Below are positions 3,486 through 7,727 of a stretch of DNA of 64,000 nt, one piece after another. The position numbers and the translations under genes are program-made. The notes under the pieces are model-generated. The model saw only the letters and a list, made by a program, of their open reading frames with translations. It searched no databases and had not been told where the DNA came from. This DNA is from Escherichia phage vb_EcoM_bov9_1: sequence record MT884006.2; one strand, written 5' to 3'. Numbering within the stretch: the first letter of the stretch is position 1; every line of letters starts with the position of its first letter.

Positions 3486-3761
3486 TTATTTCATATTATT
3501 GAAATATTCTTCTGCGATTTCGTCGTTATCATGGTAAACTTTAGAAGACAGTTTAACATAACTTTCAGCAGTGAACATGTTAATCACAACCTTTACAGTA
3601 TACCACTGACCGTCTTCATTGCCCATTACCGCATAAGTTTCAAACATCGGATGATCAGGACCGATAACTTTAATATCATTCACTGTACGACCGAAATCTT
3701 CTGAAACACATTTCATAAAGAAGTTGAACAGTTCGCCGTAATTATCCATTTCGTTCTCCAA
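3486..3761 (-). CDS. Hypothetical protein
   Basis: 91 aa ORF preceded by an early-type promoter and GGAGAA SD. Confidence 0.5.
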   Translation of the reverse strand: MENEMDNYGELFNFFMKCVSEDFGRTVNDIKVIGPDHPMFETYAVMGNEDGQWYTVKVVINMFTAESYVKLSSKVYHDNDEIAEEYFNNMK

Positions 3762-3792
3762 GTTGTTTTCTGTATCAGTAGTTGATAGTTGT

Positions 3793-3822
3793 ATAGTACC
3801 ATGGAAGAACAGGGATGTAAAC
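3793..3822 (-). promoter_or_regulatory. T4-type early promoter (GTTTAC -35, 18 bp spacer, TGGTACTAT extended -10)
   Basis: Minus-strand reading GTTTACA-N18-TGGTACTAT about 30 nt upstream of ATG at 3761. Confidence 0.55.
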
Positions 3823-3955
3823 AGTTTTGTGAAAAAATTTTTAAAAAGTTTTAGGGAATTCTAGGGTCAGGAGGGGCAATTAAAAGATAGGATAATATAT
3901 TATAAAGGGTAGAAACTAAATGATGCCTAGAGAGGCCCAGAAAGGCCTAGATACC

Positions 3956-3982
3956 AAAAAGTCCCAACCTTTCGGTTGGGGC
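3956..3982 (-). terminator. Intrinsic terminator (7 bp stem, GAAA loop, U-tract)
   Basis: Minus strand reads CCCAACC-GAAA-GGTTGGG followed by TTTTTGG; near-identical copy at 4512..4540. Confidence 0.65.
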
Positions 3983-3990
3983 TAAGAATG

Positions 3991-4464
3991 TTATTTGATT
4001 TGTTTAGCAGACCAAATGCGGTCTTTAATAATTTTTTGGATGTCTTCAACATACTCAAGAGAGTGAGCATGTGGGTTATCTTTGAAACTATGAGCTCGCG
4101 CAAGTTTCTGGCCTTCGGTCTTAATTATCAAAAGTTCTTTAAGAATTGCTTCATACCTAGAGATAATTCCTTTAGCAATATTTTTTTCTTGTGCTGCTTT
4201 AGGGTCAGCCTTAGGAGCAGGTTTACCTGAAGCCTTTGCAAAAGCAGCTCCAGTAGCAACTAAACTTTTCCAGGCCATACTAACTGCATTTCCCGTAAAT
4301 CCTTCCGCTTTCATGTCGCGTGCGAACTGGAATCGCGATTCATCAGAAGCATCTTTATAAGAATATTTACCCGCTGCAATGGCTGCTTTTGCGACAGCTT
4401 GAATTTCGGTGCTAGATGCTTCATTTAACACCGCTTCATTTAAAAATTGAGTATATGATTTCAT
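3991..4464 (-). CDS. Internal-protein-like (IPII/IPIII-like) with N-terminal capsid targeting sequence
   Basis: 158 aa product starts MKSYTQFLNEAVLNEA, resembling the T4 internal-protein CTS (MKTYQEFIAEA) with L-x-E prohead protease sites; basic Ala/Lys-rich body; AGGAAA SD before ATG at 4464. The ORF-track extension to 4641 would run through a terminator hairpin. Confidence 0.6.
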   Translation of the reverse strand: MKSYTQFLNEAVLNEASSTEIQAVAKAAIAAGKYSYKDASDESRFQFARDMKAEGFTGNAVSMAWKSLVATGAAFAKASGKPAPKADPKAAQEKNIAKGIISRYEAILKELLIIKTEGQKLARAHSFKDNPHAHSLEYVEDIQKIIKDRIWSAKQIK

Positions 4465-4511
4465 CTTATTTCCTGTTTTAATTTGTAGATTTAATATACT
4501 AATATTTATAC

Positions 4512-4540
4512 CAAAAAGCCCCAACCTTTCGGTCGGGGCT
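4512..4540 (-). terminator. Intrinsic terminator (10 bp stem with one G-U, GAAA loop, U-tract)
   Basis: Minus strand reads AGCCCCGACC-GAAA-GGTTGGGGCT followed by TTTTTGG; ends the tRNA transcription unit. Confidence 0.65.
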
Positions 4541-4591
4541 AAGCCTTGCGGCAACCTTGTCGGGGTTCCACCTGCTAAGGCAAGTGTTTGT

Positions 4592-4683
4592 ACGAAACGC
4601 CGGGATTCGAACCCGGTTATTAAGTAGTTGACGCTACTCAATATTTTTAAAAGGCCATATCTCGACCATATCCGAACGTTCCG
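4592..4683 (-). ncRNA. tRNA-like element or stable RNA candidate (non-canonical)
   Basis: Intact T-arm (CCGGG-TTCGAAT-CCCGG) and a 7 bp acceptor-like stem, but about 15 extra nt in the body, a 6-nt loop where the anticodon loop should be, and no encoded CCA. Confidence 0.25.
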
Positions 4684-4856
4684 TCAAAAACGCTACTCGG
4701 CTTATGGCAAAGATATTTCCTCGAATCGATAATTCGGTGCGCCGTTTCTGCTGTGATATAAGGGGACATTAACAAAACATAAAGATTTATTAATGCCAGT
4801 CCTTAAACAGGGAACATCAGTCCGACGACTTGCCGGTAGCGACCCGGCTTCTTGTC

Positions 4857-4932
4857 TGGTCGAGGCAGTAGGGATCGAACCTACGACCCAGGACTTAGAA
4901 GGTCCTTGCTCTTCCTTCTGAGCTATGCCTCG
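4857..4932 (-). tRNA. tRNA-Arg (anticodon UCU)
   Basis: Manual cloverleaf: acceptor CGAGGCA/TGCCTCG, T-loop, anticodon loop CUUCUAA, CCA encoded. Confidence 0.85.
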
Positions 4933-4936
4933 TATT

Positions 4937-5011
4937 TGGCGGACGTGATAGGATTCGAACCTATAACCAATCGCTTAACAGGCGATCGCTCTGCCATTGA
5001 GCTACACATCC
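4937..5011 (-). tRNA. tRNA-Asn (anticodon GUU)
   Basis: Manual cloverleaf with all four arms regular, T-loop TTCGAAT, anticodon loop CUGUUAA, CCA encoded. Confidence 0.75.
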
Positions 5012-5015
5012 AAAT

Positions 5016-5102
5016 TGGTGGGGAGTGGTGGAGTCGAACCACCCGAGTCGCAATGACAATGGATTTACAGTCCACACCGCTACCTCTACGGGATAACTCC
5101 CC
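5016..5102 (-). tRNA. Putative type II tRNA-Tyr (anticodon GUA) with a weak D-stem
   Basis: 7 bp acceptor, T-arm GGTGG-TTCGACT-CCACC, anticodon arm with loop CUGUAAA, 15-nt variable arm resembling bacterial tRNA-Tyr; D-stem has only 2 clean pairs. Confidence 0.55.
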
Positions 5103-5111
5103 AAATTAATT

Positions 5112-5186
5112 TGGTGGCCCTGGGTGGAATTGAACCACCATCTGGCGATTATGAGTCGCTTGCTTGAACCTTCCAGCTACAGGGCC
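5112..5186 (-). tRNA. tRNA-Ile (anticodon CAU, presumably lysidine-modified)
   Basis: Manual cloverleaf; anticodon loop CUCAUAA; CCA encoded. Confidence 0.8.
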
Positions 5187-5187
5187 T

Positions 5188-5264
5188 TGGTGCTGATTGA
5201 CGGAATCGAACCGCCGACCTTCTCATTACAAGTGAGTTGCTCTACCTACTGAGCTAAATCAGCA
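5188..5264 (-). tRNA. tRNA-Thr (anticodon UGU)
   Basis: Manual cloverleaf; anticodon loop CUUGUAA; T-loop TTCGATT. Confidence 0.8.
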
Positions 5265-5268
5265 AAAC

Positions 5269-5358
5269 TGGCGGAGGCGATAGGATTTGAACCTATGAGT
5301 CGCTCCGGCGACTGCCGGTTTTCAAGACCGGTGCATTAAACCACTCTGCCACGCCTCC
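5269..5358 (-). tRNA. tRNA-Ser (anticodon UGA), type II
   Basis: Reverse complement GGAGGCGTGGCAGAGTGG...CCGGTCTTGAAAACCGG...GGTTCAAATCCTATCGCCTCCGCCA matches the T4 tRNA-Ser architecture. Confidence 0.9.
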
Positions 5359-5364
5359 AAATAT

Positions 5365-6015
5365 TTATATATTGTTAATTTGATTTAGAATTCTTTTTGC
5401 TTGAGTATGACTTACGCCAATATGCTTAGCATATTTAGATAATTCACCACGTTTAGAAAAATCATATAATTTAGAAATTTCTATTCTTCTTTTTCTTTCA
5501 TCCGCAGAAACTTTTGCTTCGTTTGCTTTTGCTATTTTACGTTTAGCTTCTTGAGAATGAGTTTTACCAGCAAAGCCGTTCTTCATTAATCCATTTGAAG
5601 ACCATCCTTTTAATTTTCCGTTAGAATGTGCCTTTTTAACACCCAATGAAATTAATTCGCGTTGCTGATCTGTCATAGGATAATTATTTATATGATCCCA
5701 TCCACCTTCACCTCCAAGTTTTAAATTATACACATCTGGTCTATTTAAAAACTCTTCTGTGACAATATTTTTCTCGGCTTCAAGCATAGATTCTTTATCA
5801 TCAAAATACTCTAATATTTCTTTAGAAAAATTTTCTATACCATATTTATCTTGGGCTCTTTTTAATAATTTACCAGAACCCATATATCCATCATCTAAAT
5901 TTTCGGTAGAATGCACACCAATATAAATTTTATTATTAATTTTATTTGTTATTTTATAAAGATAAAAATGCATATCAGTCCCTAATAAAGAACTGAGCGT
6001 CTCACGACGAGTCAT
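5365..6015 (-). CDS. segB: GIY-YIG homing endonuclease (SegB-like) embedded in the tRNA cluster
   Basis: N-terminal motif YLYKITNKINNKIYIGVH...GYMGSG typical of GIY-YIG Seg/I-TevI enzymes plus a basic C-terminal domain; the internal ATG at 5973 is a likelier start than 6015, which lies 5 nt from tRNA-Gly. Confidence 0.8.
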   Translation of the reverse strand: MTRRETLSSLLGTDMHFYLYKITNKINNKIYIGVHSTENLDDGYMGSGKLLKRAQDKYGIENFSKEILEYFDDKESMLEAEKNIVTEEFLNRPDVYNLKLGGEGGWDHINNYPMTDQQRELISLGVKKAHSNGKLKGWSSNGLMKNGFAGKTHSQEAKRKIAKANEAKVSADERKRRIEISKLYDFSKRGELSKYAKHIGVSHTQAKRILNQINNI

Positions 6016-6019
6016 AAAT

Positions 6020-6093
<74 letters not shown>

Positions 6094-6098
6094 AAATT

Positions 6099-6185
6099 TG
6101 GTGCGAGAAGTGGGACTCGAACCCACAAGGAAATCATTCCGCAGCATTTTAAGTGCTGTGCCTTTACCAATTTGACCATTCTCGC
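6099..6185 (-). tRNA. tRNA-Leu (anticodon UAA), type II
   Basis: Acceptor GCGAGAA/TTCTCGC, long variable arm, anticodon loop CUUAAAA. Confidence 0.8.
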
Positions 6186-6187
6186 GC

Positions 6188-6259
6188 TGGGAATAAAGGA
6201 CTCGAACCTTTGCATCCTGGAATCAAAATCCAGTGCCTTACCAACTTGGCTAATTCCCA
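6188..6259 (-). tRNA. tRNA-Gln (anticodon UUG), CCA not encoded
   Basis: Acceptor TGGGAAT/ATTCCCA, T-arm AAAGG-ACTCGAA-CCTTT, anticodon loop UUUUGAU; abuts tRNA-Leu. Confidence 0.75.
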
Positions 6260-6328: not shown

Positions 6329-6355
6329 ATAATAACAAATAATTCTTAAAGCAAA
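6329..6355 (-). promoter_or_regulatory. T4-type middle promoter (MotA box TTTGCTTTA, 12 bp spacer, TATTAT -10) upstream of the tRNA cluster
   Basis: Minus-strand reading TTTGCTTTA-N12-TATTAT about 70 nt upstream of tRNA-Gln. Confidence 0.45.
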
Positions 6356-6870
6356 TTAAACATTTTAACGGTCGGCAAAACAATTTCTTCTTCTATATAA
6401 GAGTATTTAACACTCTCAACTACACGCAGAAAATCATAATCATAATATTCAGAAGCACTGCCTAAAATATTAATAAGTCCTTCAAGCACTTTATTACCAT
6501 TCACAAAGAATAAGTCAAATACACGTTCTTCGTCTTCTTCGGATTTATTACCAAGGTCAACTTCTATATCAAAGACCTTTTTAATGAATTCTGAACAAAG
6601 CTGGTCTGAGAACAGTCCTTCAACCAAGTATTCATAAATAAAAAGCGATTGCTCGCTGAACAAGCCATTACCACAATAACGTTCAGCTTTAGTACTAGAA
6701 TGTCTGCTTTTAAACTTCTTTAAAAGATATTGGAACTGTAAGATTTCATGCTCTTCTACGCCAAACAGTGTTTTAGTTTTATAGTTGTCACCATCATTTT
6801 CCCAGGTAGTGACATCAATTACGTAACCCTGCGGAATTGTAGTACCTAAACAAATATTCATTTTCACCAC
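6346..6870 (-). CDS. Hypothetical protein (variable locus between tRNAs and 57B)
   Basis: 174 aa ORF, acidic, no recognised motif. Confidence 0.45.
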   Translation of the reverse strand: MVKMNICLGTTIPQGYVIDVTTWENDGDNYKTKTLFGVEEHEILQFQYLLKKFKSRHSSTKAERYCGNGLFSEQSLFIYEYLVEGLFSDQLCSEFIKKVFDIEVDLGNKSEEDEERVFDLFFVNGNKVLEGLINILGSASEYYDYDFLRVVESVKYSYIEEEIVLPTVKMFNLL

Positions 6871-7160
6871 GCTGCATTAATATAAGTATATTTAATACAT
6901 TCAAGACTTAAAGGATTCTTGAAAATATCATATTCAAGAGGACCTTTTTCTGTTTCAATAAAGAAATCAAAATTTACTGTATTAAATTTACGGTCTTCCT
7001 TCACTAATTTAACCTGAGAAGATGAACGGTCAATGTAAACCTTTTCAACTTCAAAACATGTTAAAATGCCATAATCATCAATCAAGGCTTTAGCTGCTTC
7101 TTGATCATATTTATATCCATTTTCAATGGATGATACTTTAGCATAAAGAATCATTATCAA
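6864..7160 (-). CDS. Hypothetical protein
   Basis: 98 aa ORF with start/stop overlap to neighbours. Confidence 0.45.
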   Translation of the reverse strand: MIMILYAKVSSIENGYKYDQEAAKALIDDYGILTCFEVEKVYIDRSSSQVKLVKEDRKFNTVNFDFFIETEKGPLEYDIFKNPLSLECIKYTYINAAW

Positions 7161-7549
7161 CCTTCATCAACAATAGTATGAGTATGGGCATTTACAATTT
7201 GCCACCAATCAAAGCGATTAGAACCATACATCGGTTTGTTTTCATTTTCTTTGATAATATCACGAAGTTCATCTTCAGTAGCGGCTTTCGCGATTAAATC
7301 AGCATATCCACCACGAGGATAATAATTATCACCTGCAAAAAGTAAAAAGTTTGGTTTAATGTTATTGAACTCTTCAAGAGTAATAACTGTTCCTGATGGT
7401 AGTTGAACAATCTCTACATATTTATATCCTAATTTTTGAGCAGCATCTACTGCTTCAAGCAAAGTATCATGAGCCCATCCAATTTGGCAATCTGGCTTTT
7501 CAGATGGATTAGCCTGATAATCCGCGTACACTTTATACATTCTATTCAC
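7157..7549 (-). CDS. Hypothetical protein
   Basis: 130 aa ORF, translationally coupled to the upstream 61 aa ORF. Confidence 0.45.
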   Translation of the reverse strand: MNRMYKVYADYQANPSEKPDCQIGWAHDTLLEAVDAAQKLGYKYVEIVQLPSGTVITLEEFNNIKPNFLLFAGDNYYPRGGYADLIAKAATEDELRDIIKENENKPMYGSNRFDWWQIVNAHTHTIVDEG

Positions 7550-7727
7550 CTTTAGAAATTTTATCCATAACGATAGCGATTAAACCAATTAAAAATGCTA
7601 CTACAAGCGAAAACACATTTTCTGCTGTAGTTAATAATCCGCATATAAATCCAACAAACATTGAAAAACTAAAAGCGGAAGCAGAAATTGCAATAGCAAC
7701 ATTTCGAATTAATTCACAGCGTTTCAT
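7542..7727 (-). CDS. Hypothetical small membrane protein
   Basis: 61 aa ORF with two hydrophobic segments; early promoter and GAGGAG SD upstream. Confidence 0.45.
   Translation of the reverse strand: MKRCELIRNVAIAISASAFSFSMFVGFICGLLTTAENVFSLVVAFLIGLIAIVMDKISKGE

Follow-up and report, generated by a model that had tools for sequence, protein, structure and literature searches.

Why does a T4-like phage carry, beside its tRNA cluster, a small gene set between two nearly identical terminators, and does the product of this gene travel in the phage head? We examined these questions in a 64,000-nucleotide (nt) stretch of Escherichia phage vb_EcoM_bov9_1 (sequence record MT884006.2), hereafter called the window, which is a Tequatrovirus (T4-like) segment. 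The gene lies on the minus strand at 3991..4464, between the rnaC terminator and e.8 and adjoining the tRNA cluster; it is outside the ipI and ipII/ipIII loci, where genes of internal proteins (IPs) usually stand, as an earlier note on this DNA had already placed it. Our analysis indicates that its product is probably packaged, as an internal head protein of a new and unnamed family that would be expressed late, targeted through its leader and processed by gp21, and that the rnaC/e.8 interval would be a third modular IP locus that has gone unrecognized. The position away from the classical intervals (57B-tRNA or denV-e) bears on the locus and not on the class of the protein.

The gene was called from its translation, its ratio of nonsynonymous to synonymous change (dN/dS) and its match to PHROG 2280. 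The open reading frame (ORF) of 474 nt including the stop codon encodes a predicted internal head protein precursor of 157 amino acids (aa; 17.2 kDa, pI 9.5), one fewer than the 158 of the earlier note, and orthologs are annotated at the same 157 aa. A Shine-Dalgarno sequence, AGGAAA, read from the sequence at 4469..4474 on the minus strand, is separated from the ATG by a 4-nt spacer. A longer, TTG-initiated ORF of 216 aa was rejected as spurious; it spans the upstream hairpin and rnaC, whereas the orthologs are annotated at 157 aa. The dN/dS values lie between 0.07 and 0.21, and the ORF is therefore a real gene under purifying selection.

The N-terminus of the protein, MKSYTQFLNEAVLNEA (MKSYTQFLNE/AVLNE/A, with slashes at predicted cleavage sites), was compared with the capsid targeting sequence (CTS) of T4 IPIII. 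Mutagenesis of the IPIII leader assigned targeting to residues 4 and 7 and processing to residues 8 and 10 (PMC9026906). These determinants are Y4, F7, I8 and E10 in IPIII and Y4, F7, L8 and E10 in the 157-aa protein, which thus has the targeting pair of the IP class and, with L8 and E10, a predicted gp21 cleavage site. The first 11 residues were scored with BLOSUM62 against MKTYQEFIAEA for 568 Met starts on both strands, each with at least 40 codons downstream. The leader ranked first of the 568 with a score of 29 (z = 5.3), and the runner-up scored 19. The same score exceeds those of two bona fide IPs against the IPIII leader, PST IpV (25) and T4 IPI (24). When the published determinants were applied as a four-position rule (aromatic residue at 4, F at 7, I or L at 8, E at 10), a single start of the 568 satisfied it, that of the 157-aa ORF.

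The leader (residues 1-15; 4420..4464, minus strand) holds two predicted gp21 sites, LNE/A at E10 and at E15. The known T4 IP cuts are IAE/A or ITE/A, with the same P1' Ala. Cleavage would leave mature N-terminal peptides AVLNEASSTEIQAVAK from A11 and ASSTEIQAVAK from A16. The second site stems from a 15-nt tandem duplication (4418-4428 and 4433-4443), and alleles of 153 to 154 aa lack it. Leaders of this kind persist in homologs of four genera, down to about 40 to 50% identity, even as the bodies drift apart. Klebsiella phages have MKFKEFLAE, Yersinia phage fHe-Yen9-01 has MLEYSEFLKE and a metagenomic homolog MLKFNEFLAE, and alleles of the Mosigvirus type begin with MKSYAEFLTE or MKTYNEFL... 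Judged by the published determinants, the N-terminus is supported as a CTS. The composition of the protein is likewise close to that of T4 IPII and IPIII, with pI 9.5, 17.8% Ala and 12.7% Lys compared to pI 9.3 to 9.5, 14 to 16% Ala and 13.5 to 15% Lys, and the mature form would carry a net charge of +7 to +8. As is typical of IP genes, this one encodes a small, basic product and is dispensable and polymorphic among close relatives. The earlier note had likened the N-terminus to the T4 targeting sequence, its L-x-E motifs to gp21 sites and the body to IPII and IPIII, and these comparisons all hold.

We then asked how the gene would be expressed. It is bounded by a direct repeat of 36 nt, at 3951-3986 and 4508-4543, whose two copies are identical at 34 of 36 positions and are the only ones in the 64-kb window. 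Read on the minus strand, each has a GC stem capped by a GAAA loop and then a T-run; the two scored as terminator-like. The upstream copy (4508..4543, minus strand) is the intrinsic terminator of the tRNA-rnaD-rnaC operon, with a 10-bp stem, a GAAA loop and a T5 run; it folds at -20.3 kcal/mol (z = -3.5). In T4, this hairpin closes the tRNA-rnaD-rnaC transcription unit. The downstream copy (3951..3986, minus strand), the terminator of the cassette, carries the two substitutions and has a 7-bp stem; it is followed by a conserved right junction, GGTATCTAGGCC, into the e.8 promoter region. The two near-identical GAAA-loop terminators proposed earlier were thus recovered, although the repeated unit measures 36 nt and not about 27 bp.

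The minus strand also carries a box, TATAAATA, at 4503..4510, 46 nt 5' of the ATG. Boxes of this type are gp55-dependent late promoters in T4. The box spans the junction of repeat and cassette (GGTAT/AAATA), the last bases of the repeat, GGTAT, giving its first half, while the downstream copy reads GGTAT/CTAGG and forms no promoter. With 13 such boxes on the minus strand of the 64 kb, a given ATG would have about a 1% chance of a box within 60 nt. The arrangement is conserved: the window and each of the 11 further loci examined from Tequatrovirus and Mosigvirus have [T/A]ATAAATA 34 to 48 nt 5' of the ATG, and a Klebsiella Jiaodavirus has the same order of hairpin, T-run and GTATAAATA. No early or sigma-70-like promoter was found between the upstream hairpin and the ATG. 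At the level of sequence, a late box behind a strong terminator points to late expression, a property of the IP class by which the protein would be at hand for prohead assembly. Because the upstream hairpin terminates the tRNA-rnaD-rnaC unit, the gene is predicted to be insulated from early and middle transcription and to form a self-contained late unit within an early region.

Comparison with related genomes showed how variable this site is. In T4 there is no gene between e.8 and rnaC, and a single hairpin, with the same core sequence and nearly identical over the full 36 nt, occupies the interval. The difference between the window and T4 is a clean indel of 557 bp with the repeat at its ends; the left flank of the T4 hairpin corresponds to the window left of copy 1 and its right flank to the window right of copy 2. 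Since T4 has this clean single-hairpin site, the gene is an exchangeable module flanked by terminators, as had been suggested, and alignment across T4-like genomes, the check proposed for that claim, revealed a cassette that varies. At least four states were recognized. The site is empty, with one hairpin, in T4, T2, T6, PST, RB3 and RB10; it holds the 157-aa gene alone in the window, fPS-2 and fD1, the 157-aa gene followed by a 187-aa gene in Yersinia phage ZN18 (MN716856), ime09, HP3 and Shfl2, and the 187-aa gene alone in FL12. The late box, the several states of the locus, the identity of the hairpin and the absence of the gene from T2, T4 and T6 had no place in the earlier note.

The 187-aa ORF (2100-2663 of the ZN18 stretch, 653-1219 of the FL12 stretch) has the leader MKTYAEFLTE/AAK, with a late-like box and a hairpin of its own, and resembles the 157-aa protein in the leader only. 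It occurs in 165 phage records, all of which annotate it as hypothetical. The T-run of the hairpin is the site of every junction: GGGGCTTTTT followed by GGTATAAATA into the 157-aa gene, GGGGCTTTT(T) followed by AGTTTGAATC into the 187-aa gene, and CTTTTTGGTATCTAGGCC into the e.8 promoter region. In phage fHe-Yen9-01, three ORFs that begin with CTS-like leaders stand in tandem (200-358, 922-1491 and 1501-2037 of its stretch); the leaders are MKTYIEFINE, MLQYNEFLKE and MLEYSEFLKE, and the last ORF is the homolog of the 157-aa gene. Its 189-aa ORF matches the 187-aa gene weakly (E = 1e-4), and the 157-aa family with an hhalign probability of 42%.

Mosigvirus and Jiaodavirus likewise have the gene downstream of the tRNA cluster, and it is therefore probably old in the Tevenvirinae. 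Empty sites of the T4 type are most simply explained as deletions between hairpin copies; exchange during coinfection would yield the same pattern. The downstream hairpin duplicates the upstream one in several lineages and is unrelated to it in others, so the twin terminator is common but not universal. In Mosigvirus KAW3E185, both flanking hairpins (2430-2460 and 2972-2995 of its stretch) carry a variant, GCCCCTTCCTTACGGTTGGGGC, unlike that of Tequatrovirus, a single example that suggests gene conversion between the two copies.

The body of the protein was then examined for relatives. The full-length match to PHROG 2280, a group of unknown function, has an E value of 1.6e-59. Pfam gave no family, with only a sub-threshold match to Shikimate_dh_N (E = 0.11), NCBIfam gave no match and a PDB profile search no relative. 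The earlier note had named homology to a non-packaged protein family as evidence that would tell against its proposal, and none appeared in the Pfam, PHROG, NCBIfam and PDB profile searches. The protein is encoded in 511 phage records, and all of these as well as the cluster members examined call it hypothetical. The 157-aa gene or the 187-aa gene is carried by Tequatrovirus, Mosigvirus, Jiaodavirus and a Yersinia phage lineage, and bas42_0248 of the BASEL phage AndreasVesalius (Bas42) has the same sequence as the window protein. A phmmer search of 1.8 billion representatives returned 10 hits, about 8 of them genuine relatives at the 50% identity level. The matches P0017 (2,315 aa) and P0018 (866 aa) were discarded as spurious, being low-complexity T/G/S-rich repeats with five stretches each on AAGSYSYK. 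A 94-aa protein (P0013) on a Logan contig of 2,898 nt joins an N-terminus like that of trna.3 (compare 7157-7549 of the window) to the last 32 residues of the 157-aa protein; either it arose by recombination in nature or it is an artifact of assembly.

In a comparison with IPI, IPII, IPIII, IpIV, IpV and IpVI, no homology of the mature body was detected. For IPII and IPIII, hhalign aligned the leader only, at a probability of 12 to 19%, and the translations of IPI and of PST IpIV, IpV and IpVI, compared by eye, had only the leader in common. PST IpIV had been considered as the same gene in a classical locus on account of its equal length of 157 aa and was rejected, since its translation is unrelated beyond the leader.

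The AlphaFold2 model (predicted local distance difference test score, 77) is all-helical. It comprises an N-domain (residues 17-78; 4231..4416, minus strand) with a predicted three-helix bundle (residues 18-71) and an invariant AGKYSY motif, a basic Pro/Lys/Ala-rich linker of low model confidence (residues 79-95; 4180..4230) and a C-domain (residues 96-157; 3994..4179) that forms the core of a predicted long helical hairpin (residues 88-154, with helices 88-124 and 131-154). Foldseek searches gave nothing significant in PDB (best E value, 1.5) and only the protein's own family in BFVD.

Evidence on virions comes from an ortholog. The product of g140 of Yersinia phage fD1 (phiD1, HE956711) is 97% identical to the window protein. 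When fD1 virions purified by ultracentrifugation were analyzed with liquid chromatography coupled to tandem mass spectrometry, g140 fell in the strict 'PPAP' tier, as a protein with no T4 counterpart (PMC8309999). The spectra, public as dataset PXD026812, had been searched with full tryptic specificity. The mass spectrometry of purified virions that had been proposed as a check thus exists for a close ortholog, in an unspecific screen, and records detection in particles, not position inside the head. This result stands against a second explanation of the leader, in which the protein would be an accessory of the prohead core, targeted to the scaffold and then, at maturation, lost by degradation or expulsion as gp22 and much of gp67/gp68 are, and so neither retained nor injected. 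An all-helical fold with a long helical hairpin is reminiscent of scaffolding proteins, and a further L-x-E motif at E110 may allow additional, internal cleavage. However, the ortholog was seen in mature purified particles in the strict tier, the gene varies in presence between phages, is missing from T2, T4 and T6 and is hence not needed for assembly, and its cassette locus also houses other tag-bearing accessory genes. We consider a core accessory improbable.

Several points weigh against a packaged internal protein and need to be set beside the evidence for one. The fD1 screen discriminates weakly, because it flagged as particle-associated 113 gene products out of about 277, clearly nonstructural ones among them (PMC8309999). 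Residues S3, T5, Q6 and N9 of the leader depart from the classical MKTYQEFIAE, and in a position-specific scoring matrix built from six leaders the ORF ranked third of the 568 starts. This naive matrix was dropped as overfitted, since it heavily penalized S for T and L for I, and was replaced by BLOSUM62 and the published determinant rule. The motif at E110 may be a site of further cleavage, and the two substitutions weaken the downstream hairpin to between -13.3 and -13.6 kcal/mol (z = -1.6). Only two IP loci are described in the literature, with no IP genes elsewhere (PMC2839356 and PMC12373910), and neither the sequence nor the model points to a specific target (PDB profile, Foldseek PDB and BFVD). 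Head targeting, gp21 cleavage and injection of the 157-aa product are, moreover, what we infer from these features.

Some of the same points would fit a late protein that is never packaged, with an unrelated function and a CTS likeness that is coincidental or was recently acquired through recombination with the leader of an ip gene. Such a protein would fit the absence of body homology to any named IP, the unusual leader positions with the third rank in the naive matrix, and the unspecific virion screen. However, chance or recent recombination hardly accounts for a leader that is conserved across four phage genera while the body changes, nor for the presence of such leaders before unrelated bodies in neighboring cassettes at the site; conservation extends to the late promoter, and no other of the 568 starts obeys the determinant rule. 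We regard this explanation as very improbable and packaging as the probable outcome.

If the protein is packaged, its function has to be considered. T4 Ip1, Ip2 and Ip3 have been known since 2025 each to inhibit one distinct GmrSD type IV enzyme, and ten ip genes tried against other GmrSD variants yielded no new pairs (PMC12373910). Sequence fragments of the 157-aa and 187-aa proteins were not found in the accessible part of the supplements of that study. The pattern of variation in the 157-aa protein bears on this question. Among coliphage alleles, dN is 0.21 to 0.34 in the N-domain and 0.03 to 0.05 in the C-domain, amounting to about 5 to 12 times more nonsynonymous change in the former, and the N-domain occurs as three discrete allele types upon a nearly constant C-domain. 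Homologs from Klebsiella and Yersinia phages have the reverse pattern, with the N-domain conserved and the C-terminal half diverged; an intermediate homolog (P0016) and common motifs suggest divergence of this half rather than a swap of the C-domain. In the ortholog of Klebsiella phage KpV477 (2495-2731 of its stretch), an in-frame TAA stands where Klebsiella phage KP01 has AAA (Lys), and the truncated gene is either a pseudogene or the result of a sequencing error.

IPII and IPIII were long assumed to be a general DNA-associated filler, and the 157-aa protein might likewise be packaged without a specific host target, serving in charge neutralization, DNA packing or ejection. Its pI of 9.5, the mature charge of +7 to +8 and a Lys/Pro/Ala-rich linker like basic DNA-binding tails would suit such a role, and lysines of IPs touch DNA phosphates in T4 heads (PMC3012670). 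With IpIV as the sole other recognizable CTS protein in the three loci examined, the protein may also form much of the internal protein mass. However, the models for such a filler, IPII and IPIII themselves, proved to be specific GmrSD inhibitors (PMC12373910), and phages in nature can do without the gene, as its absence from T2, T4, T6 and PST shows. An N-domain that evolves about 5 to 12 times faster than the C-domain and exists in three allele types suggests a changing partner and not generic DNA binding. We therefore think a general filler unlikely, if less so than the two explanations above. By analogy to Ip1, Ip2 and Ip3, the protein may neutralize a host defense that acts against the incoming modified DNA; like the earlier note, which named an antidefense role as a candidate, we put this forward as a hypothesis only, and as a role that somewhat more probably does not apply than does. 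Under such a role, the variable N-domain might hold the recognition surface.

Taken as a probably packaged internal protein, the gene product can be followed through a possible course of events. The strong tRNA-rnaD-rnaC terminator would stop early and middle read-through and leave transcription to the fused TATAAATA box, late in infection only. The leader, MKSYTQFLNE..., would act as a CTS that ties the precursor to the prohead's scaffolding core of gp22, and the gp21 prohead protease would cut it after E10, E15 or both (LNE/A). The mature protein, predicted to be basic, all-helical and 142 to 147 residues long, would stay in the head with the DNA and be ejected into the next host. The gene with its late promoter and its own terminator would behave as one cassette, gained, lost or paired with the second tag-bearing cassette through recombination at the hairpins; since the cassettes would recombine at repeated terminator hairpins, rnaC/e.8 would be a third polymorphic IP locus. 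Components for such a course are present in the window: it has genes for the prohead protease gp21 (Peptidase_S77, E = 6e-112) and the scaffold gp22, as well as for gp68 and the portal gp20.

A broader proposal is that rnaC/e.8 is a third Tevenvirinae hotspot of injected counterdefense genes. Both protein families would then inhibit defenses for which no phage inhibitor is known, for example GmrSD variants that restrict T-even phages yet are not blocked by ip1 to ip10, and the cassettes would move by way of the hairpin that builds their late promoter. This is speculative and, in its full form, rather unlikely. The 157-aa and 187-aa genes have been overlooked, the site being empty in T2, T4 and T6 and every record calling them hypothetical. 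The IP repertoire has been treated as confined to two loci, and ten ip genes have been tested; the rnaC/e.8 genes stand outside both loci. The two proteins are candidates for new injected antidefense effectors. The empty sites of T4, T2 and T6 allow a natural gain-of-function test, the carrier Bas42 is available in a public collection, and the genes are relevant to host-range prediction for therapeutic phages.

The surroundings of the gene largely follow T4. In the two stretches tested around the gene, of 901 nt and 621 nt, the identity of the window to Escherichia phage vb_EcoM_bov10K1 is 99.9%. The order on the minus strand is that of T4: 1, 57A, 57B, the ORFs of the tRNA locus, the tRNA cluster with a GIY-YIG ORF, rnaD, rnaC, the 157-aa gene and e.8 through nudE. 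The stable RNAs rnaC and rnaD (T4 species 1 and 2) were located at approximately 4591..4855 on the minus strand by alignment with the T4 annotation. The homologous region (about 4545 to 4855) gave no Rfam match even at E values up to 1, and both RNAs appear to be without an Rfam family. Downstream, e.8 (3486-3749, minus strand) is preceded by a promoter-like site of sigma-70 or early type at 3793-3821, the whole feature covering 3486..3821. The tRNAs at 4857-6259 are those for Arg, Asn, Tyr, Met, Thr, Ser, Gly, Leu and Gln and, unlike in T4, do not include Pro or Ile. A 216-aa GIY-YIG-like ORF (5365-6015) stands between tRNA-Ser and tRNA-Gly, and segB of T4 stands between tRNA-Arg and tRNA-Ile. 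The ipI locus (6346-7727) has no leader-bearing ORF and contains trna.2-, trna.3- and trna.4-like ORFs and an extra ORF of 174 aa (6346-6870). In the phage matching the window, the ipII/ipIII locus holds an IpIV ortholog only (1874-2347 of its stretch). The three loci examined thus encode two recognizable CTS proteins, the 157-aa protein and IpIV, and no IPI, IPII or IPIII.

How does the locus compare with known systems? No earlier mention of the 157-aa ORF was found in the literature, in a check that did not extend to Repoila 1994 and Comeau 2007, so that an earlier mention cannot be fully excluded, and the literature gave none of RB32ORF133c. PHROG 2280 matches the protein over its full length but is unannotated and so conveys no functional information. 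To the GmrSD inhibitors Ip1 to Ip3 the protein is linked by analogy; neither its sequence nor its fold resembles IPI* or any entry in PDB. Its likeness to the IPs of T-even phages (IPI to IPIII, Ip4 to Ip10 or IpIV to IpVI; Repoila et al. 1994, Mullaney & Black 1996 and Silas et al. 2025) is closer. These also begin with a leader of about 10 residues, MK(T/S)(Y/F)x(E/Q)F(I/L)xE, that ends in an (I/L)xE/A gp21 site; they too have small, basic, Ala/Lys-rich bodies and are dispensable and polymorphic between close relatives. Their bodies are mutually unrelated, with the leader alone in common, and repeated stem-loop blocks stand on their flanks. The 157-aa gene differs in its place at rnaC/e.8 instead of the 57B-tRNA or denV-e locus, in a body unrelated to IPI, IPII, IPIII, IpIV, IpV and IpVI, and in its duplicated cleavage motif, its packaging and processing being predicted. 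In none of the 511 records has it been named or annotated as an IP.

The cassette also resembles the Repoila homology blocks and promoter-early/stem-loop (PeSL) elements (Arbiol et al. 2010; Comeau et al. 2014). There, as here, an ORF lies between repeated intergenic elements with a terminator stem-loop, a sister genome (here T4) has one copy of the element in place of the ORF, and different cassettes are combined at the same junctions. In contrast, the repeat at rnaC/e.8 is a bare 36-nt intrinsic terminator, and its left copy also terminates the tRNA/rnaC operon. It belongs to no genome-wide repeat family, with two copies in 64 kb, and the promoter of the cassette is a putative late TATAAATA box and not an early or sigma-70-like one. 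Exchange at this locus would therefore proceed by a unit of late promoter and terminator, in contrast to the blocks of early promoter and stem-loop described before.

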